Positions 19,462 to 60,431 of a stretch of DNA of 64,000 nt are shown here, one piece after another; position 1 is the stretch's first letter; every line of letters begins with the position of its first letter. The stretch spans positions 1 to 64,000 of the forward strand of contig JAYZEG010000024.1 in assembly GCA_036337435.1 (NCBI GenBank), read 5' to 3'. The translations under genes and the position numbers were made by a program. The DNA is from Myxococcota bacterium (GTDB lineage: Bacteria; Myxococcota_A; Bradymonadia; UBA7976; UBA1532). Under the pieces are notes generated by a model. The model did not search any database, was not told where the DNA came from, and saw only the letters and a program-made list of their open reading frames with translations.

Positions 19462-19503
19462 TCACTACGTTGACCATATTTGTCTGTTACGTTGGAGTGT
19501 ACC

Positions 19504-20493
19504 GTGAATTCAGGTAAGCTGTCGCGCCCATTAATTGGTGAAGACCCATCTATCCAGAAAGTCCTTAACTTGGTTGCTAAAGTTGCTCCAACTGACAGCT
19601 CCGTATTGGTTTTGGGCGAAAGTGGCACCGGCAAAGAATTGATCGCTCGCGCCCTGCACGAAATGAGTCCCCGTGTTGGTAAGCCATTGGTGCCAATCAA
19701 TTGTGGCGCAATCCCCGAAAACCTATTGGAAAGTGAACTCTTTGGACATGTGAAAGGTGCCTTTACAGGTGCTGCCCAGAACCGCACAGGCCGTTTTGAA
19801 CTGGCAAATGGTGGCACGATATTTCTCGATGAAATCGGTGAAATGAGTCCGACTCTACAGGTGAAACTACTGCGTGTCCTGCAAGAACGATGTATCGAAC
19901 CGGTCGGTGGGGGGCGGAGTGTAGATGTCGATGTCCGTGTTGTGGCCGCGACCAATAAGGATCTTGAAGAGCAAATTGAGAATGGTAGCTTTCGGGAAGA
20001 CCTCTATTATCGACTCAACGTTGTGGAACTCAATCTGCCTGCTCTGCGACAGCGGACCAGCGACATTCCTCATTTGATTCGTTTTTTTAACAACCGCTTA
20101 CGTGAACAACGTAACCGCGGGATTAATGGAATCGCTGATGCGGCTTTAGACAAATTATTGGCTTACGGGTGGCCTGGCAACGTGCGCGAACTCGAGAATG
20201 TAGTCGAGCGGCTGACGGTGTTCTGCCATGACGAGGTCGTTCAATTAGACGACTTGCCTGCCAAAATTTTGTCGCCACGGAAACGAACTGGTGACATGCC
20301 TTACGATCTGCCCGAAGACGGCTGTGACCTGCGCGAGGTGCTAAATAGCCTAGAAGAACGACTTATCCGGCAAGCTCTTGATCGAACTGGCTGGAATAAA
20401 AACAAAGCGGCATCACTTTTGCGTATGAACCGGACGACCTTAGTTGAGAAACTAAAGAAAAAAGAGATATTGAGTCCGAACGAGGAAAAATGA
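19504..20493 (+). CDS. Sigma-54-dependent activator (AAA+ and Fis HTH), FleQ/FlrA-like flagellar master regulator without N-terminal sensor domain
   Basis: GESGTGKE, ESELFGHVKGAFTGA, FLDEIGE, WPGNVREL, C-terminal HTH. Likely start GTG 19504 with GGAG SD (the track gives TTG 19480). Heads the flagellar cluster. Confidence 0.9.
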   Translation: MNSGKLSRPLIGEDPSIQKVLNLVAKVAPTDSSVLVLGESGTGKELIARALHEMSPRVGKPLVPINCGAIPENLLESELFGHVKGAFTGAAQNRTGRFELANGGTIFLDEIGEMSPTLQVKLLRVLQERCIEPVGGGRSVDVDVRVVAATNKDLEEQIENGSFREDLYYRLNVVELNLPALRQRTSDIPHLIRFFNNRLREQRNRGINGIADAALDKLLAYGWPGNVRELENVVERLTVFCHDEVVQLDDLPAKILSPRKRTGDMPYDLPEDGCDLREVLNSLEERLIRQALDRTGWNKNKAASLLRMNRTTLVEKLKKKEILSPNEEK

Positions 20494-31577: not shown

Positions 31578-32231
31578 ATGGATATCGCATCTGCAATGAG
31601 TTCGGCTCGCAACGTTGGAGCGGCGACGGCTGAAGAGAGAACATCCATAGAAAAGGAAGGTTTTCTCAAGTTGCTGATCGCTCAGCTGAGTAATCAGGAT
31701 CCGATGCAGCCCCAGGACTCCGAGAAGTATGTTCAACAGTTCACCCAGTTTTCAAATCTGGAGCAGCTGATGAACTTGAATAAGGGTGTGGATCAATTAT
31801 CGATTGGTCAGCTCAGTAACAATACCCAAGAAGCAATTCGATTCGTCGGCCGAACGGTGGTGGCGAAAGGGGATAGCTTACATTGGGATGAATCAGGGAT
31901 TGCGCCAGTTAAGTACAGTGTTCCGCAGGATGCAGAGAGTGCTGTTGCAACGATTTACGACGCCACTGGAGAGGTGGTTAGAACGGTTCCTGTCAATAGC
32001 AAAGCTGGTCTGCACCAGTTCCAATGGGATGGAACCGATGAAGATGGACGCATGCTGGAGCCAGGCGAATATTCCGTGAATGTTCAGGCCATAGATGCGG
32101 AGGAGAATGAGGTGCCGATAGATACCTATGTCCGCGGTCAGGTCGACGGCATTCGCTTTGATAATGGTTACCCAGAGTTACTCGTTGGCGGGCGCCGCCT
32201 GAGGATGAGTGACATAACAGAGGTTCATTGA
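31578..32231 (+). CDS. flgD: Hook cap protein FlgD
   Basis: 'FLKLLIAQLSNQDPMQP', 'QFSNLEQ', 'FQWDGTD..G'. Confidence 0.95.
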   Translation: MDIASAMSSARNVGAATAEERTSIEKEGFLKLLIAQLSNQDPMQPQDSEKYVQQFTQFSNLEQLMNLNKGVDQLSIGQLSNNTQEAIRFVGRTVVAKGDSLHWDESGIAPVKYSVPQDAESAVATIYDATGEVVRTVPVNSKAGLHQFQWDGTDEDGRMLEPGEYSVNVQAIDAEENEVPIDTYVRGQVDGIRFDNGYPELLVGGRRLRMSDITEVH

Positions 32232-32632
32232 TGGGCAAATACGATGTGTTCCTTAAGGGCGCTTTACATCGGAGCATCGTGGACCCGGTCAATACAGCTG
32301 AATCCTCTTCGAGCCAGGAGGTACGGGGGGGCATCAGTTTTGAGCAGATTTACGCAGCTCAGCTACCGGCGGGCAGCGTAAAACTCTCGCAAGAGGCTCA
32401 GGACTCGCTCAAACGAGCGGGGATTGAGTTGACCCCATTAGAGTTGGACCGGATGGGTCGAGCGATTGATGGATTGAGAGAGGCTGGCGGCCGTAAGGGG
32501 TTGCTGGTGACAAACAAGGTTACGGCAGTCGTTGATGTGACGGAACGTCTCATCACGGCAGCTCAGACCAGACAAGAAGCTAGGGACCAAGTCTTTTGTC
32601 ATGTCGACAGCGTGATGCTGACCGACGACTAG
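32231..32632 (+). CDS. Flagellar operon protein (TIGR02530-like)
   Basis: 'VKLSQEAQDSL..G' and 'ITA.....VF..VDS' pattern; position between flgD and flgE. Confidence 0.7.
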   Translation: MGKYDVFLKGALHRSIVDPVNTAESSSSQEVRGGISFEQIYAAQLPAGSVKLSQEAQDSLKRAGIELTPLELDRMGRAIDGLREAGGRKGLLVTNKVTAVVDVTERLITAAQTRQEARDQVFCHVDSVMLTDD

Positions 32633-32744
32633 ATTTGACGTACGAAATTCGACCAGGGAAGGGTTCGAATTTCAGCGTACTGAGTTGTCAGTACGTTAAT
32701 CGAGCGTGGAGCTTTGCCTCGCGCCATGCACAGGAGGTCTGGCT

Positions 32745-34046
32745 ATGCCAGGACTATTGGGTTCATTGTTTGTTGGCCAAGGAGGCCTGAACACCTCCGG
32801 TATTGGTATCAGTGTTATTGGTGACAATATCGCAAATTCAAATACGACGGGTTTTAAGACCGCTCGTGCGCACTTCGAAGATCTCTTAAGTGAGTTCATT
32901 GTGGGTGCTGCAGGTGCTAACCAGTTGGGTCGTGGTGTGACCCTTCAACGGATTGAGAAGAGTTTCAGCCAAGGTAGTTTTCAGAGCACGGGTGTCCCCA
33001 CGGATCTCGCTATCTCTGGTAACGGGATGTTCGTGTTGAGTGGACTGGCTTTAGGGAAATCTCAGAACGTCTACACGCGTAATGGTGCATTTAGATTTGA
33101 TGACGAAGGGTTCCTTGTCAATCAGGCAGGATATCGAGTTCAGGGTCACAATTCTTCAGAAGCCGGTGAGGTCAGCTCCATCGTAGAAGATGTTAAGATC
33201 GCGCCGGGCCGTTTGCTACAGCCCAATGCAACCGATGAAGTCATCATCAACGCCAACTTTAGACCTGATGATCCGATTTTCGCCTTCGACGTCAACAATC
33301 CTGAAGACACTGCGACCTTTAGAACATCGGTCGTCGCTTTTGATGGGTTAGGTAATCCCCATGAAATCACCGTGTATGGTAGCCGGACTGCGGCCAACGA
33401 GTGGGACATGAACGCCGTGGTTGATGGTGCTGATATCGCCGGTGGTGCTGCGGGTGTCCCAACCCTAATTCCACTGGGCACCTTATTGTTTGATCAGCAG
33501 GGACAGTTGCTCGATGAACAGATTAATAACCCCATCAACATTCCGTGGGCTGGCACAGTTCCGGGTGATGTCACCTTTGAGTTTGGTGATGCCATTAACG
33601 ATGGTGGTACAGGACGTGAGGGCACCACTCAATGGAATGAAACATCGGAAAGTGTCGCTCACTACCAAAGCCAAAATGGGTATGGCACCGGCGAACTCGA
33701 TGGGATTTCCATCGATGACCGAGGTCAAATTATTGGTGCGTTTACCAATGGTAGACAGCAGATTTTAGGCCAGGTGATTTTGGCTAAATTCGCAGACCCA
33801 ACTGGATTGGCGATGGTCGGTGGGAACAACTTTGTTGCGACAGCCGCCAGTGGTGAGGCCATCGTTGGTGAAGCGCGCGGAGGCGGGAGAGGCGCGATCG
33901 TTGCATCAACCCTCGAATTGTCGACCACTGAGCTGAGTGGTCAATTTATCGATTTGATTACCTATCAGCGCGCATTTCAGGCGAATTCCAGAACGATTCA
34001 AACAGCAGATGGCCTGTTGCAGGAGATATTCCAGATTCTAAGATAG
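32745..34046 (+). CDS. flgE: Hook protein FlgE
   Basis: ATG 32745 with AGGAGG SD; 'IGDNIANSNTTGFK', 'DLAISGNG', 'YTRNGAF', 'LELS....QF...I..QRAFQAN'. Confidence 0.95.
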   Translation: MPGLLGSLFVGQGGLNTSGIGISVIGDNIANSNTTGFKTARAHFEDLLSEFIVGAAGANQLGRGVTLQRIEKSFSQGSFQSTGVPTDLAISGNGMFVLSGLALGKSQNVYTRNGAFRFDDEGFLVNQAGYRVQGHNSSEAGEVSSIVEDVKIAPGRLLQPNATDEVIINANFRPDDPIFAFDVNNPEDTATFRTSVVAFDGLGNPHEITVYGSRTAANEWDMNAVVDGADIAGGAAGVPTLIPLGTLLFDQQGQLLDEQINNPINIPWAGTVPGDVTFEFGDAINDGGTGREGTTQWNETSESVAHYQSQNGYGTGELDGISIDDRGQIIGAFTNGRQQILGQVILAKFADPTGLAMVGGNNFVATAASGEAIVGEARGGGRGAIVASTLELSTTELSGQFIDLITYQRAFQANSRTIQTADGLLQEIFQILR

Positions 34047-34078
34047 CGACATCTCAATTTAACTAAATGACGGCATCT

Positions 34079-34563
34079 TGATCGATGTTGGGTGCATGAC
34101 CGCTCGGCGGTGGCTGGTCCAGGGAAGGACCGGTGGTTCGCAACAACTGACCACGGAAGGAAAGGTAACGGACCAGGCACGGCCAAGCGGTCGGCACCCA
34201 GCTGATCATGCTCTAGGATGGAGCATAACGAGATGACCGAAGGAGCAAACGGGTAGAAGACAAAATCAACCTCACCGAGGGGTTGAGCTTTTGACAAATG
34301 ACTCCATGAATCTAGCGACGCACTCGCATCGCTAGATCCTCGCGCATGTACCTGAGGAATACCCAGCCTCATAACAGGGTGCATGTGCAAAAAAAGAGAT
34401 GGGATAGACCCATTTCCCATCTCACAAGGCGCCAACAAGACCCATAACCGATTGGTGCTTACTCGAGTGCCCGGTAGCTACCCACTACCGGGCACTCATC
34501 CCCCTCTCTTTTTGATTGGGGTTGAAGATTGGAATTTGGTACCGCACGATTTTCTCACGTGCG
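34079..34563 (+). ncRNA. Putative highly structured non-coding RNA or UTR between flgE and fliL (multi-hairpin, ANGGA and ACCCA loop motifs); family unknown
   Basis: About 10 consecutive stems read by eye, including perfect 13-bp and two 9-bp stems. The wobble pairs are G-U on the + strand. No credible ORF. Confidence 0.6.
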
Positions 34564-34640
34564 TGTAGACGACATTTGGTTTAATCTCCCACAAAGTAGG
34601 TCAATGTCCTACGGTGGCAGAATGGAAGTTAGGTGCCTTC

Positions 34641-35192
34641 ATGGCTGAAGAGAATGAAGATCCACAGGCAGAAGAAGAGGGCGGAGAAGAGTCCGAAGGC
34701 TCTGGTGGTGGTGGTAAACTGGTCCTAATTATTGGTCTAATCAACACCATTGGACTTATCGGTTTGGCGTACATGGGCATGACTGGTGGCTTCGGCGGCG
34801 GGGGCGGTGGTCCAACGCTCAGTCCAGAGGCCATGGGAGAAAGTGCGCTTCAGGGTAAGAAAACCGTTGAAGACCGGCCCTCGGCCGCGCCCGGACCTAA
34901 AGTAGAGCTTGGTGAGTTGGTGGTTAACCTCAAGGAACCCACGGGCGATCGCTTTCTGAAAATCAAAGCCGAGCTGGAATTAGACAGCGAAGAGACGCGT
35001 GCGGAAGTTGAAGGTCGTTTGACATCGATTCGTTATGAACTCAATCTATTGCTCTCTGGGCAGCGGGTCGTCGATGTCCAGGGGCCTGATGCCATAGAAA
35101 CCCTACGTAAGGCCATGATTAGACGGGCTAATTCTCGATTGGCCAAAGGGCGGATTGTGAACGTTTGGCCCGGCGAGTGGATAGTGCAGTAA
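34641..35192 (+). CDS. fliL: Flagellar basal body-associated protein FliL
   Basis: One N-terminal TM; 'LVVNL....RFLK'; C-terminal 'EWIVQ'; upstream of fliM. Confidence 0.9.
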   Translation: MAEENEDPQAEEEGGEESEGSGGGGKLVLIIGLINTIGLIGLAYMGMTGGFGGGGGGPTLSPEAMGESALQGKKTVEDRPSAAPGPKVELGELVVNLKEPTGDRFLKIKAELELDSEETRAEVEGRLTSIRYELNLLLSGQRVVDVQGPDAIETLRKAMIRRANSRLAKGRIVNVWPGEWIVQ

Positions 35193-35213
35193 TCTTTCTG
35201 GAATGATGAACTG

Positions 35214-36284
35214 ATGGCAGAGCAAATCCTATCGCAAAATGAAATTGATGCCCTCCTTGCGGCCGTCAATGAAGGTGAGCTCGAACTCGACGAAGAGACT
35301 GACAGTGGTCGTGAATCTAGTTCTGATGCGGCGGCTTTTGCCGTCAAATACGATTTGCTCAGTCAAGACCGCATCATTCGCGGTCGAATGCCGACACTCG
35401 ATATCATCAACGACCGCTTTGCCCGACAGTTTCGCATTACGTTGTCCAACAGCCTTCGAAAAATCGTTCAGGTGAACGTCGAAAGCACGAGCTTGATGAA
35501 ATATGGGGAGTTTTTAAATTATCTCCCCATTCCCAGTTGCCTTAATTTGATGAAGCTGAATCCGTTACGCGGGTCTTCAATACTCGCCATCGAGAGCAAA
35601 TTAATTTACGCCTTTCTAAACAATTGGTTTGGCGGCGCAACCAATGCTCAAGAACGTATAGAAAGCCGAGATTTTACCGCCATTGAACTGATGGTCATCA
35701 AGCGGGTTATCGATTTTTTGACATCCGAGTTGGAAAGCGCATGGCAACCCGTCCATCCGATTCAATGCAAATATGTCCGCACTGAGGTCAATCCACAATT
35801 CTTGGCCGTAATCGCACCGAGTGATGTCGTAGTTTTGACGAGTTATGAAATAGAAATTGACGGTTTACGTGGTTCTGTCCAGTTGGTGATTCCATATAGC
35901 TCAATCGAACCCATCAGGCAGCACCTGTCTCGCGGTATCGGGGCGGATGCGGAAGGCGACGATAATGCATGGCGTAATTTGCTGACGGAAAGCCTCAATG
36001 ACGTCCAAACGCGCAGTCAAGTGATTCTGGGCACCAGTCGGATCACAATTCGAGACTTGTTGAAGCTAAAACCGGGTGAAATCATTACTTTAGGCACGAA
36101 CAGGACCGATACCTTGGACTTCATTGTTCAGAAGTCTAAGAAGTTTGAAGTGGTCCCAATGGAACAATCAGGGTATTTAGCTGGCAAGATTACCAAGGAC
36201 ATCCCCCCCCGTTTACCAGACGCATTAACGTTCTTAAAAATAGATAATGAAGACGAAACCGGGGACGAAGATGACGACATTTAG
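35214..36284 (+). CDS. fliM: Motor switch protein FliM
   Basis: 'LSQNEIDALL' CheY-binding motif, 'RMPTLDIINDRFAR', 'EVNPQF'. Confidence 0.95.
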   Translation: MAEQILSQNEIDALLAAVNEGELELDEETDSGRESSSDAAAFAVKYDLLSQDRIIRGRMPTLDIINDRFARQFRITLSNSLRKIVQVNVESTSLMKYGEFLNYLPIPSCLNLMKLNPLRGSSILAIESKLIYAFLNNWFGGATNAQERIESRDFTAIELMVIKRVIDFLTSELESAWQPVHPIQCKYVRTEVNPQFLAVIAPSDVVVLTSYEIEIDGLRGSVQLVIPYSSIEPIRQHLSRGIGADAEGDDNAWRNLLTESLNDVQTRSQVILGTSRITIRDLLKLKPGEIITLGTNRTDTLDFIVQKSKKFEVVPMEQSGYLAGKITKDIPPRLPDALTFLKIDNEDETGDEDDDI

Positions 36285-36716: not shown

Positions 36717-38063
36717 ATGTACCGCAAGATTCTTATTCTCTTATTCGCAGTCATTGCACCGACTGCTCTCCTGGGCTCAGCCGCTCATGCGAACACATTA
36801 AACGATGTTCTGTATACCGGCTCGTCTGACCGAATTGAATTCCGATTCAAGACCAACCAACCCGTTGAAGCCGATTCCATCTCGGCGCGGACTGAAGGGG
36901 CTGTGTTGGTCGTCACTTTGTCTGAGACCAAGGTGAAGAGGCACTGGCTGAATCTGAAGGATGTGGATATCAAGCGCGCTTTGGTTCACCCGTCTCGTCG
37001 GGGTGCTGACGCGCGACTTCGCGTTCGGTTTCATCAGGCACTCCCAAACGCGGTGATCCAAAATATCCGAGTACGCCAGGAGAACGGGCGTCTCGTTATC
37101 TCCATCCCCCGTGATGAGAAGACGGCATTGTATTGGTCGTCAAACCAACCTTCGGCTCCGCAAAATAAAAATGCAAAGCCGCAAACAGACGCGGCTCAGA
37201 GACCGGCCATAGAGCCAACCAAGACCATCGCCCAAGCTGAAACAAAATCAGCACCCGTGGTAGCGGCTACACCAGCAGTTGAACCCACATCTCAGGTTGA
37301 CAGAGAGCCTGTGGAGACACCGATTGCAGACAAAACCTCAAAACAAACAGCCACAGTCGGTAGCGACGAGAAGCCTGCAGACGCTAATCCGGTTACGCCC
37401 CAAACCACAAATGCCCTTGGGCAAACATCGAACGACGGCCCTCGGATCGGTGCCTTTGCTATGGCTATGCTCTTCTTGGTCTGTGTTGGCTTGGTGATGT
37501 TTAGGAAGCTGCGTAACCGAACGACAGCACCGGGTGATGGCCCTATGATCAAACCAGTCAGCACCCACATGCTTGGGCCGAAGCAAGGTCTACTTCTTGT
37601 GGATGTTGCCGGCGATATGGTTTTACTCGGCACAAGCGACAAAGGCGTCCAAATGCTGACCAAGATTGATGGTCGTGAAATGGTCGATACCGACGCGTTG
37701 TCAAAGCAGGTCACACCGACAGATACACAGATTCCAATGTCCGCTATCGAGGCAAATCAGCGGCCGGCTTTCGCAGAGCGCTTTGGACGCGCAATCAGTC
37801 GGATTCGAGAAGCGACCCAGGGAACACAGCAGTATGCAGCCTATCACGCGAATGCAACCCGTCGTCAGGATGAAGAATCCGGCCACTTGGACCACCTTCT
37901 CAACAAGGTCGAGGATGTACACCACGGTGCCTCTGGACGAAACTCGAGACGTGACTTTGCGCCCCTTGAAACCCGCGCTGAAGAGTCGGTCTATGCGGCG
38001 CAACCTCCCGTTGTGCAAAACGATGACCTTTTGAACAAACTCCGAAGTCTACAGGGCGCATAA
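36717..38063 (+). CDS. fliO: FliO with large N-terminal periplasmic (AMIN-like) domain and long C-tail
   Basis: Signal peptide, beta-domain, linker, TM, then the FliO core 'LGPKQGLLLVDVAG...LLG'; between fliN and fliP. Confidence 0.75.
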   Translation: MYRKILILLFAVIAPTALLGSAAHANTLNDVLYTGSSDRIEFRFKTNQPVEADSISARTEGAVLVVTLSETKVKRHWLNLKDVDIKRALVHPSRRGADARLRVRFHQALPNAVIQNIRVRQENGRLVISIPRDEKTALYWSSNQPSAPQNKNAKPQTDAAQRPAIEPTKTIAQAETKSAPVVAATPAVEPTSQVDREPVETPIADKTSKQTATVGSDEKPADANPVTPQTTNALGQTSNDGPRIGAFAMAMLFLVCVGLVMFRKLRNRTTAPGDGPMIKPVSTHMLGPKQGLLLVDVAGDMVLLGTSDKGVQMLTKIDGREMVDTDALSKQVTPTDTQIPMSAIEANQRPAFAERFGRAISRIREATQGTQQYAAYHANATRRQDEESGHLDHLLNKVEDVHHGASGRNSRRDFAPLETRAEESVYAAQPPVVQNDDLLNKLRSLQGA

Positions 38064-46535: not shown

Positions 46536-47288
46536 ATGAAGCAGGGGATCCAGGCATACCAGCGACAAGCGCAAGTATCGCAGCGACGTCGCCAAGAAGA
46601 GATGGTCAAAAAGTATGCACCGCTTGTGAAGAAAGTTGCGTACCGAATGGTTCATCGCTTGCCATCATCTGTTGAAGTGGAAGATTTGATTTCTGTCGGA
46701 ACCATCGGACTCCTGCAAGCCTTTGATAATTTTGATGATAGCAAGGGCACGCGCTTCGAATCCTTTGCTGAATTTAGGATTAAAGGAGCCATGCTGGATG
46801 AGCTTCGGACCTACGATTTCATGTCGCGGGCGGCTCGCGGAAAAGCCAACAAAGTTGAAAAAGCACGAGCCATCCTAGAGGCGGATTTAGGTCGAGCACC
46901 GACCGTCGCAGAAGTGGCTGAATTGACTGAAATGACGGTCGCTGAAGTCGACTCTATCTTGGCTCAAAGTGAGCAGGTGGCGTTTCTCACACTCGATGAT
47001 TTAGGGAATCTTGCTGTCGACCAGACTGAAGTGCCTTGGGAACTTTTGACTCAAAGTCGACCTGAAGACCCCTTCGGGCACACATTTTTTCGCGAATTGC
47101 GAGACCAGCTGGTCGAAGCTCTTGAGAATATGCCTGAGCGTCTCCGTTTGGTCATGTCCTTATATTATTACAATGACCTCAACTTTAAAGAGATCGGGCG
47201 TGTATTGGACCTCACGGAGTCTCGCATCAGTCAGTTGCATCTGGAGTCCGTCAAATATTTACGGAAGAAGCTGCGGGGCGCGCACTGA
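46536..47288 (+). CDS. fliA: RNA polymerase sigma-28 FliA
   Basis: 'RLPSSVEVEDL', 'RIKGAMLDELR', 'KEIG.VL.LTESRISQLH'. Confidence 0.95.
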   Translation: MKQGIQAYQRQAQVSQRRRQEEMVKKYAPLVKKVAYRMVHRLPSSVEVEDLISVGTIGLLQAFDNFDDSKGTRFESFAEFRIKGAMLDELRTYDFMSRAARGKANKVEKARAILEADLGRAPTVAEVAELTEMTVAEVDSILAQSEQVAFLTLDDLGNLAVDQTEVPWELLTQSRPEDPFGHTFFRELRDQLVEALENMPERLRLVMSLYYYNDLNFKEIGRVLDLTESRISQLHLESVKYLRKKLRGAH

Positions 47289-60356: not shown

Positions 60357-60431
60357 GGGTGATTAACTCAGTGGTAGAGTGCTTCCTTCACACGGAAGAA
60401 GTCACTGGTTCAAATCCAGTATCGCCCACCA
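60357..60431 (+). tRNA. tRNA-Val (anticodon CAC)
   Basis: Acceptor GGGTGAT/ATCGCCC, D-arm with TGG, anticodon stem CTTCC/GGAAG with loop TTCACAC, GTTCAAA T-loop, encoded CCA. Confidence 0.96.

Follow-up and report, generated by a model that had tools for sequence, protein, structure and literature searches.

The gap between the hook protein gene flgE and fliL in the flagellar gene cluster of an uncultured Myxococcota bacterium (assembly GCA_036337435.1) is confirmed here to hold a conserved, structured, plus-strand RNA that is tied to that cluster. The gap covers positions 34047-34640 of contig JAYZEG010000024.1, of which the first 64,000 nucleotides (nt) were analysed; this whole stretch is referred to as the window. 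We lean, if only by a small degree, towards reading the element as a hook-linked, trans-acting RNA of ~430-470 nt that controls flagellin translation through the start regions of the flagellin messages. Central to this reading are hairpin loops that repeat the motif (G/U)ACCCA and are complementary to flagellin starts, and a second set of hairpins that resemble binding sites of the flagellar repressor CsrA. Flagellar assembly requires that flagellin be withheld until the hook is complete, and to our knowledge the post-transcriptional devices described so far comprise the FliW-CsrA switch and, in model pathogens, a few short small RNAs (sRNAs).

A structured RNA conserved downstream of flgE

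An earlier examination of the letters of the window, called the sequence-only reading below, had listed a series of stems in the gap and taken them for one large RNA. All of these stems are found in either the minimum free energy (MFE) fold of the plus strand or an inverted-repeat scan: the rod at 34079-34208, the hairpins at 34208-34226, 34266-34286, 34342-34388, 34427-34460 and 34543-34563, and the perfect stems of 9 bp at 34396-34423 and of 13 bp at 34465-34497. The hairpin at 34310-34337, listed as a perfect 9-bp stem, was recovered as well, with arms that the scan gives as 12 nt long and 92% complementary. The innermost stem of the rod, GTGGTT/GACCAC, is present in the window and is specific to this genus; other genera form a three-way junction with a different hairpin. 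The fold reaches -249.2 kcal/mol against -184.7 +/- 8.4 kcal/mol for 100 dinucleotide shuffles (z = -7.67), and thus lies well below the shuffles that the sequence-only reading had named as a check.

The opposite strand folds as well (z = -7.65), and energy alone therefore gives no strand. A covariance model of the element, R1, scores 65.7-149 bits on the flgE strand and ~15-31 bits for antisense matches. Moreover, wobble pairs are conserved among 17 sequences, one being U-G in 17/17 and another G-U in 12/17; such pairs would be A-C on the other strand and hence fit the plus strand only. The view that selection acts on a plus-strand RNA, earlier argued from the wobble pairs of this one genome, is borne out by these model scores and conserved pairs.

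Comparison of the spacers of related genomes, likewise foreseen earlier, gave abundant compensatory change. A MAFFT alignment of the 5' part of nine spacers, analysed with RNAalifold, has compensatory changes at 25 of 49 pairs and yields a long rod, a branched apex and a following hairpin. A second alignment, of 17 sequences, was fitted to the covariance model and is hence biased in its favour. It has 93.1% paired cells, double-sided changes at 30 of the 49 pairs and a covariation score of 0.477; on each of these counts all 500 shuffles fall short, and slid controls stay at or below 45.4% paired cells and a score of 0.099. Among the 17 sequences, helix 1, the rod, contributes 33 pairs (23 changed on both sides, 95.7% of cells paired), helix 3, a 6-bp stem at the second GGA site described below, is compensatory at four of its six pairs, and helix 4, the hairpin of GGA site 3, at two of four (92.6% paired cells). 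Helix 2, at the apex, is weak, with 80.8% of cells paired and a single compensatory pair.

The element was traced through 40 relatives with BLAST, which gave syntenic matches in eight genomes of the same family and a 21-nt stretch, included at GGA site 1, with 100% identity between genera. The length of the flgE-fliL spacer stays at 540-740 nt even with FlgE identity down to 52%. Of the 28 genomes of this marine Myxococcota family, 17 have a match to R1, and each of them has exactly one; all 17 are among the 20 family genomes that bear flgE, none of the eight genomes without flgE has a match, and a search of three genomes of the sister family gave none. In 17/17 homologues the RNA lies directly downstream of flgE on the same strand, and all eight metagenome contigs retrieved with the core pattern share the same build. 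R1 finds no match in three relatives, G004, G009 and G015. The modules of the RNA are separable, as G004 and G009 have three CGACCCA-loop hairpins after flgE without the 5' module. The G004 locus (L118) consists of a flgE terminator followed by the three hairpins, the last of them a canonical terminator, ~230 nt in total; G009 (L119) carries a rod-less variant, and G015 (L117) a reduced form that has lost the rod and retains one GGA hairpin and two ACCCA loops.

Within the organism's own assembly (G000; 4.38 Mb, 87% complete) the locus itself is the sole significant match. Given this single copy, a miniature inverted-repeat transposable element (MITE) or a repetitive extragenic palindrome (REP) is out, and together with the one model match per genome it rules out dispersed palindromic repeats at large; the stems also differ from one another, the ground on which the sequence-only reading had set repeats aside. 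That reading had recognised no known RNA family, and Rfam agrees. No match to the RNA appears at gathering scores across the whole window, where the sole match is a tRNA elsewhere; three listed matches at E up to 10 over 33900-34800, of 13-15 bits, are noise; the loci of eight relatives give no family at E up to 1; and none of the Rfam families reaches E = 1 with a sensible match in the window region. Pfam has no match for any open reading frame (ORF) within the gap. A small-protein gene, for example one like FlbD, was considered and rejected, as there is no Pfam match, translated similarity extends over all six frames and frame shifts occur among relatives. A 146-aa ORF that lies antisense over the RNA (33998-34438, minus strand) lacks a Pfam match and resembles relatives piecewise in three frames; it is hence spurious.

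That the element has no function as RNA, and is instead a cluster of palindromes at the DNA level, a decayed mobile element or a product of chance, is scarcely credible. The equal folding energy of the two strands would suit such an origin, but the single copy, the synteny in 17 genomes and eight metagenome contigs and the compensatory changes contradict it, as do the strand-specific model scores and RNA-library contigs that are deeper over the element than over the flanking genes.

Repeated ACCCA loops and the probable terminator of the 3' module

The 3' module spans 34300-34513 and comprises three to five (G/U)ACCCA-loop hairpins, of which the last is the terminator. Its features, and a small hairpin beyond it, are as follows (SD, Shine-Dalgarno sequence).

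34301..34314, plus strand: anti-SD element ACUCCAUGAAUCUA, a perfect complement to 12 nt in the SD hairpin of fla1 and to 13 nt in that of fla3
34310..34337, plus strand: hairpin AUCUAGCGA...UCGCUAGAU, inverted repeat I4
34353..34371, plus strand: loop hairpin L1, UGAGG-AAUACCCAG-CCUCA, with a loop complementary to AUGGGUAU of fla5 and fla7 (7 nt)
34396..34423, plus strand: loop hairpin L2, perfect 9-bp stem, loop UAGACCCAUU
34427..34460, plus strand: loop hairpin L3 of the MFE fold, with AAGACCCAUAA (34437-34447) in its loop
34465..34513, plus strand: probable intrinsic terminator, inverted repeat I2, with a perfect 13-bp GC-rich stem (34465-34497) and loop CUACCCA (34478-34484)
34543..34563, plus strand: small hairpin CGCACG...CGUGCG of the MFE fold, upstream of fliL, with conservation limited to the genus

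The ACUCCAUGAAUCUA element, unpaired in this genus, is conserved within it (this window, G001 and G003). Several relatives have a counterpart of the hairpin at 34310-34337 with a CACCCA loop and the sequences ctagcggtaCACCCAtgtcgctag and cgatgcccgggtCACCCAgcccgggcgtcg, and the L1 stem covaries among relatives (GAGG/CCUC, GAGGG/CCCUC, GGGGG/CCCCC, GAGAG/CUCUU). The L2 loop with one closing base on each side (34404-34415) is a 12-nt perfect complement of the fla4 start AAAUGGGUCUAU, and AAGACCCAUAA of L3 an 11-nt perfect complement of the fla3 start UUAUGGGUCUU.

The terminator stem is followed in the window by CCCCCUCUCUUUUU, with a U run at 34509-34513 that is displaced by ~11 nt, and a simple terminator scan passes over this hairpin. 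In at least nine relatives (G018, G043, G008, G020, G041, G006, G022, G014 and G004) the terminator is canonical, with a stem of 12-14 bp, the loop CGACCCA and 5-9 U directly after it (for example gaacgcccggcgCGACCCAcgccgggcgttc then TTTTTTT), and the stems differ among relatives by compensatory changes. The sequence-only reading had allowed for a leader RNA; a leader of fliL has to be abandoned, as the structured part stops at the conserved terminator 34465-34497, ~110-140 nt ahead of fliL. The hairpin at 34543-34563, downstream of the terminator, is probably not part of the RNA. Further, L2, L3 and the terminator are enclosed by a 13-nt inverted repeat (34391-34403, AAAAAGAGAUGGG; 34501-34513, CCCCUCUCUUUUU; 92% complementary) that overlaps the U run and might give rise to a different fold.

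Of the 12 closest loci, 11 have hairpins with a [GT]ACCCA loop downstream of flgE, one to four in each; the opposite strand has none in any of the 12, and two of 66 more distant loci scanned have one. The spacers of 20 family members contain ACCCA 62 times and TGGGT ten times; the MFE fold leaves the CCC unpaired in 43 of the 62 ACCCA copies. This locus is the sole cluster of three or more ACCCA-loop hairpins in the 4.38-Mb genome. Across that genome GACCCA lies in hairpin loops in 8.9% of cases, against 8.8-10.6% for the other motifs tested; there being no enrichment, the ACCCA loops are not a general feature of terminators.

Complementarity to flagellin mRNAs

The organism has seven flagellin genes (loci L120-L126 on contigs C28, C30 and C62), and five of the paralogues lie on C28, near flgM, csrA and fliW. 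Three of the seven start with ATGGGTCT and two with ATGGGTAT; UGGGUC is the exact complement of GACCCA, as UGGGUA is of UACCCA. Perfect complements of 7-12 nt link the loops to five of the seven starts (fla1, fla3, fla4, fla5 and fla7). Start regions from -30 to +15 were scored against 34230-34512 by the sum of the two longest non-overlapping perfect complements, with 2,186 other starts as controls. No control scores as high as fla3 (24) or fla1 (21), one does for fla4 (19) and five do for fla5 (18); four of the seven flagellin starts thus fall within the top 0.25% of the control start regions. One non-flagellin start, that of a 636-aa ORF (C31 of G000, minus strand, start 10255), scores 20, the only one to do so; it opens with UUAUGGGUCUU, which is perfectly complementary to the L3 loop over 11 nt, and may be an extra target or a chance match.

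A survey of 78 flagellin genes from this genome and 10 relatives extends these observations. UGGGUC stands at +2..+7 in 39/78 genes (11 genomes), and of the 62 genes with glycine at codon 2, 43 use GGT; in seven high-GC genomes the fraction is 26/41, as against 32 of 435 glycine codons (7.4%) in their flgE genes. The flagellin leaders (14,888 nt) contain TGGGTC 17 times and GACCCA four times, and GGGTCG is their seventh most common hexamer. Since leaders are free of codon constraints, this excess forms an independent line of evidence. In silico, 12 of the 17 leader copies of UGGGUC fall in predicted hairpin loops, which sit ~70-180 nt upstream of the start codons. By comparison, five outgroup genomes without the loop hairpins have UGGGUC in one of 22 flagellin starts. 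Variants of the loops also match variants of the paralogues: the UACCCA loops fit the GGU-AU starts of this genome, and in G006 a 13-nt stretch of the RNA, AAACCCAUUGUUU, fits that genome's AUGGGUUUG flagellin. In shuffle tests carried out genome by genome, the signal is clear for G000, G006 and G007 and less so for G009 (1-2 of 100 shuffles). In fla1 and fla3 a hairpin ~95 nt upstream of the start has a loop that repeats the start region (AAGAUGGGUC). Overall, as the ACCCA loops are complementary both to flagellin starts and to leader loops, they point to antisense regulation rather than protein binding alone.

The same pairing could carry the opposite sign, so that the RNA would activate or stabilise flagellin messages, for example through kissing contacts with leader loops and removal of CsrA from the SD hairpin, and would promote filament synthesis as FlmE does in Campylobacter. 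The distance of the UGGGUC leader loops from the ribosome site and the putative CsrA decoy hairpins on the same molecule would be in keeping with this, and the flgE-linked sRNA of C. jejuni is reported to up-regulate late genes (PMC11187230). We nevertheless hold activation to be rather improbable, given that the best-conserved complementarity spans the AUG and codons 2-3, and in this genus the SD as well, a placement that normally blocks initiation.

The 5' module and its likeness to CsrA sites

The 5' module (34079-34226) comprises the rod and three sites with GGA in the context CC-ANGGAN-GG, kept in 17/17 homologues; an SD-like motif follows it.

34079..34208, plus strand: 5' rod (5' strand 34079-34120, 3' strand 34170-34208), closed by CUGGUCC/GGACCAG, with a three-way apex; from the MFE fold and covariation
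34116..34131, plus strand: GGA site 1, GGUCC-AGGGAA-GGACC, a possible local ANGGAN hairpin competing with the closing stem of the rod
34151..34160, plus strand: GGA site 2, CC-ACGGAA-GG at the apex of the rod; CCANGGANGG in 17/17 homologues
34208..34226, plus strand: GGA site 3, hairpin AUGCUC-UAGGAUG-GAGCAU
34240..34245, plus strand: SD-like AAGGAG with no start codon behind it, which may be a further CsrA site or pair with CUCC at 34302-34305

At site 1, A[GC]GGAN stands between GGUCC and GGNCC in 17/17 homologues; the stem of site 2 is weak in the window (GACC../..GGAAAG), and the loop of site 3 reads AGGGAA, AGGGAC or AAGGAU in relatives. In most relatives the rod is preceded by a fourth hairpin with a GGA loop. 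The motif at 34240, AAGGAG in the window, is aligned as (A)AGGAGG in six of nine spacers and is missing from L009 and L011.

CsrA is described as binding GGA in hairpin loops, most ligands recovered by SELEX having had loops of six nucleotides, and the high-affinity targets of RsmE as hairpins with an ANGGAN hexaloop (PMC7652899). Judged by its motifs, the 5' module resembles such CsrA/RsmE high-affinity sites and is a candidate CsrA ligand. The genome encodes csrA (76 bits) and fliW side by side, near flgM and the five flagellin genes of the same contig. Further, ANGGA lies no more than 35 nt from the start in 62 of the 78 flagellin upstream regions and forms a loop of 5-6 nt in 38 of the 78, and CAAGGA, AAGGAG, GGAGGA and CATGGA are the commonest hexamers of flagellin leaders. 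Because these leaders carry the same type of hairpin over the SD, the 5' module would seem to mimic the CsrA sites of flagellin messages. The protein sponge or scaffold of the sequence-only reading hence gains a concrete candidate partner in CsrA, with the proviso that the ACCCA loops point to antisense action beyond protein binding alone.

Could the RNA be purely a sponge that is made with the hook gene and titrates CsrA, flagellin translation rising once the hook genes are on? The ACCCA loops would in that case be there for stability, for processing or for another protein, and would match flagellin starts incidentally. Such a sponge agrees with the three ANGGAN hexaloops of all 17 homologues, the extra GGA hairpin of most relatives, the conserved AAGGAG(G) motif, the presence of csrA and fliW and the form that the flagellin SD hairpins share with the GGA hairpins of the RNA. 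On the other hand, there are just three to five GGA sites, against the 22 given for CsrB (PMC7652899). G004 and G009 keep the ACCCA hairpins without the 5' module and G015 without the rod, all three having csrA, and without pairing it is difficult to account for the GGT bias at codon 2 and for the leader loops with UGGGUC. A pure sponge is accordingly judged unlikely.

Expression, ends and the long flagellar operon

Parts of the stretch are contained in 19 RNA runs, which belong to 11 studies. For four of the runs, each of a different study, contigs were placed on 33000-35500; they are strandless and come with one depth figure per contig.

Run X1: contig 34111-34440, depth 27.3; flgE 8.1; fliL 6.5
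Run X5: contig 34111-34435, depth 12.9; flgE 4-6
Run X3: contig 34330-34481, depth 48.7; flgE 7.0; past the terminator 3.3-4.3

In run X2 the core 34110-34140 lies in contigs of depth 68-146 that continue into unlike sequence and are homologous RNAs of other strains. Together these depths hint at an RNA species that is more abundant than its neighbouring genes and stops at the terminator. The shared contig start at 34110/34111 was considered as an end of the RNA and rejected, being most likely due to divergence of relatives' sequences in the assembly graph. In two RNA studies, contigs run into sequencing adapter at 34435 and 34440, in the L3 loop just before GACCCA, which is a weak hint of a processing or cleavage site.

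An origin in the 3' untranslated region of flgE, as the sequence-only reading had suggested, is plausible: the flgE stop and the rod are ~30 nt apart in this genus, which makes co-transcription with flgE likely, and one X1 contig bridges flgE and the RNA (33976-34140). In six relatives from three genera (loci L114, L112, L113, L110, L107 and L117) a sigma-54-like motif, TGGCACG-N4-YTSMA, with a consensus also written TGGCACG-N4-(C/T)T(C/G/T)(A/C)A, lies within 30 nt past the flgE stop and suggests that the RNA has an RpoN-dependent start of its own there. By analogy with what is reported for CJnc230, both routes, with flgE and from a separate promoter, may exist. A scan for sigma-70 promoters found nothing on the plus strand near the RNA.

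A different possibility is that the element acts in cis, as a checkpoint in one long flagellar operon, where the terminator 34465-34497 would attenuate read-through from flgE into fliL...fliA and a loop-recognising factor, or CsrA on the 5' module, would set the amount of transcription that passes. The genes from flgB to fliA do stand on one strand with the element mid-way, the terminator is conserved and shares its loop motif with the hairpins upstream, contig depth is lower past it than over the RNA, and the inverted repeat 34391-34403/34501-34513 could form an alternative structure round it. Such a checkpoint leaves unexplained, however, why the loops match flagellin starts and leader loops. 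In G004 a separate flgE terminator precedes a minimal three-hairpin RNA that looks like a stand-alone gene; the sigma-54-like motif stands directly ahead of the RNA in the six relatives; tblastn found no fliL downstream in G004, G009, G018 or G007 within the locus sequence examined; and no antiterminator pairing is conserved across genera. We therefore consider a cis-acting role improbable.

Proposed mechanism

In the reading that we favour, of a trans-acting RNA that holds back flagellin translation, the RNA would be made with or right after flgE and would end at its own intrinsic terminator ahead of fliL. The (G/U)ACCCA loops of the 3' module, together with the ACUCCAUGAAUCUA element in this genus, would pair with flagellin mRNAs at three places: the AUG-GGU-CU start, the SD hairpin and, by loop-loop kissing, the UGGGUC(G) loops of the leaders. 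Pairing would occlude the ribosome binding site, so that flagellin synthesis is held back while the hook genes are expressed; it is the coverage of the AUG, and of the SD in this genus, that argues for repression. The three ANGGAN hairpins of the rod may mimic the flagellin SD hairpins and bind CsrA, which would make the RNA part of the partner switch of FliW, CsrA and flagellin. CsrA on the 5' module could stabilise the RNA or aid its pairing, and FliW, freed upon flagellin export, would remove CsrA and thereby end both kinds of repression. Precedents are reported for the two roles of CsrA, which shields CsrB from RNase E (PMC7652899) and promotes an sRNA-mRNA complex in B. subtilis (PMC6546359). 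The 33-bp rod would also be long enough to serve as an RNase III substrate. We infer that pairing takes place in vivo, that CsrA binds, that repression and not activation results, and the fate given here to CsrA.

A stronger version, in which this one RNA from the hook gene joins a decoy or carrier for FliW-type CsrA to antisense action in the style of RNAIII, its loops tuned to individual flagellin paralogues, is tentative and on balance doubtful.

Several observations weigh against control of flagellin messages through pairing. Three of the seven flagellins (fla2, fla6 and fla7) score 13 in the two-segment comparison, which 756 of the 2,186 controls equal or exceed and which is no better than the controls; the flgM start, at 14, is matched by 364 of the 2,186 and likewise shows no complementarity above controls. 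The complementarity conserved throughout is just 6-7 nt long, and no extension past this core was found in G004, G014 and G015. Ranking by RNAduplex energy does not single out the flagellins, as 91-505 of 600 sampled controls do at least equally well, and the longest matches of cognate and non-cognate RNAs to 230-nt flagellin regions (means of 10.5 and 9.7, with 9.7 for the sense strand) carry no signal. The shuffle tests gave a weak or absent signal in G004, G008, G011, G014, G015, G018 and G021, and in G008 none of the four flagellins examined has UGGGUC although the RNA keeps its loops. The 7-mer ATGGGTC is not specific to flagellins, opening 32 ORFs (at least 100 aa, no upstream ATG), three of which are flagellins; flagellin paralogues and related genomes are non-independent samples; and the preference for GGT at codon 2 could stem from another cause. 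As for CsrA, its role at the 5' module is suggested by motif resemblance, and csrA is present in 20/28 family genomes, including three whose RNA is without the 5' module, so that its co-occurrence does not discriminate. A CsrA decoy would moreover raise flagellin translation and pairing at the AUG would lower it, which would give the two modules opposite signs. Finally, contig depths are ill-suited to ranking genes, and they leave the 5' end of the RNA ill-defined.

Relation to known RNAs

By position and logic the closest known RNA is CJnc230, or FlmE, of C. jejuni; by architecture it is RNAIII of Staphylococcus aureus, and by GGA sites the Csr/Rsm RNAs together with McaS and CbsR12. FlmE reportedly measures ~90-100 nt, unlike the ~450 nt of the RNA described here. 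It is an sRNA encoded downstream of flgE, processed from the flgE mRNA, and is made from the RpoN-dependent flgE transcript and also from its own promoter (PMC11187230). The two RNAs share their place directly downstream of flgE on the same strand, here in 17/17 homologues, and a proposed link from the hook stage to late genes, FlmE being described as base-pairing with mRNAs of the flagellar hierarchy (PMC11187230). They differ in their targets, which for FlmE are given as flgM and a flagella-interaction regulator (PMC11187230), whereas the matches found here are to flagellin mRNAs, with the flgM start not above controls. The repeated identical loops and the GGA hairpins further set the present RNA apart, and the Rfam searches gave no match that would tie it to FlmE by sequence.

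RNAIII is said to be a long multi-hairpin RNA whose apical loops, that of the terminator included, share a C-rich motif that pairs with target starts and loops, and it reportedly encodes a peptide. The RNA described here likewise has one C-rich motif in several apical loops (AAUACCCAG, UAGACCCAUU, AAGACCCAUAA and CUACCCA) that are complementary to target starts. Unlike RNAIII it belongs to an unrelated organism, has an unrelated sequence and no conserved ORF, and its proposed targets form one paralogous gene family.

Dual-mode sRNAs provide a precedent for uniting GGA motifs and antisense action on one RNA, as proposed here. CbsR12 of Coxiella is said to be one of them, both pairing and binding CsrA. 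McaS and GadY of E. coli are described as combining base-pairing with CsrA binding (PMC7652899). All three differ from the RNA of this study in being short, in having no link to flgE and in being without arrays of identical seed loops. The likeness to CsrB, CsrC, RsmY and RsmZ lies in repeated GGA in hairpin loops, the ANGGAN hexaloop form and a host that encodes CsrA, and the difference in number, with up to 22 sites reported in RNAs of the CsrB type (PMC7652899) and 3-5 here. Further differences are the FliW-partnered, flagellar type of CsrA in this organism and the antisense module on the RNA. Rfam gave no Csr/Rsm family for the window (gathering score), the region of the RNA (E up to 10) or eight relatives (E up to 1). 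In E. coli, terminator loops of sRNAs are reported to serve target pairing (PMC11979758); that case concerns one loop of a short sRNA, while here the terminator loop repeats the motif of the hairpins upstream.

In the open-access literature searched, no paper was found on an RNA between flgE and fliL in Myxococcota. The RNA is thus apparently an undescribed family, in which known principles are combined in a new way.

Genomic setting

The genes that flank the RNA are the following.

32706..34046, plus strand: coding sequence of flgE (hook protein), Pfam FlgE_D2, Flg_bbr_C and Flg_bb_rod
34641..35192, plus strand: coding sequence of fliL, from ATG 34641 (in-frame GTG 34614), Pfam FliL

They belong to a flagellar cluster that occupies 19480-47285 on one strand, from a gene for a sigma-54 activator (19480-20490) to fliA (46536-47285). 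After the activator come a tetratricopeptide repeat (TPR) protein, flgB, flgC, fliE, fliF, fliG, fliH, fliI and an MgtE_N-like gene, followed by fliK, flgD, an ORF of 134 aa, flgE, the RNA and fliL, and then by fliM, fliN, fliO, fliP, fliQ, fliR, flhB, flhA, flhF, an ORF of unknown kind, the MinD-like flhG and fliA. This order resembles the fla/che operon of Bacillus subtilis, where a small gene occupies the place of the RNA. The 134-aa ORF between flgD and flgE (32228-32632) is likewise of unknown kind and has no Pfam match. The ORF with the FliO domain (36717-38063) is 448 aa long, far longer than the domain, which lies at residues 266-359. The tRNA gene at 60357-60428 (69.3 bits) is the only Rfam match in the window.

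Biological meaning

It is evident that an uncultured marine lineage possesses a large conserved RNA family, which appears to unite the two principles of CsrA binding and antisense pairing on one molecule, aimed at 4-11 flagellin paralogues per genome. For annotation, the covariance model R1 stands ready for an RNA that is seen in marine metatranscriptomes with a contig depth above that of the adjoining genes. The family opens the questions of whether CsrA proteins of the FliW type have RNA partners, how many paralogous mRNAs repeated seed loops can control and whether an sRNA maintains the synonymous codon choice at codon 2 of flagellin genes. If the stronger version given above is true, this RNA would be the first RNA partner of the FliW-partnered type of CsrA and the molecular link from hook-stage expression to filament synthesis in flagellated Myxococcota; the occupancy of CsrA, reset by FliW at flagellin export, would then decide whether the RNA persists and the flagellin messages stay silent.

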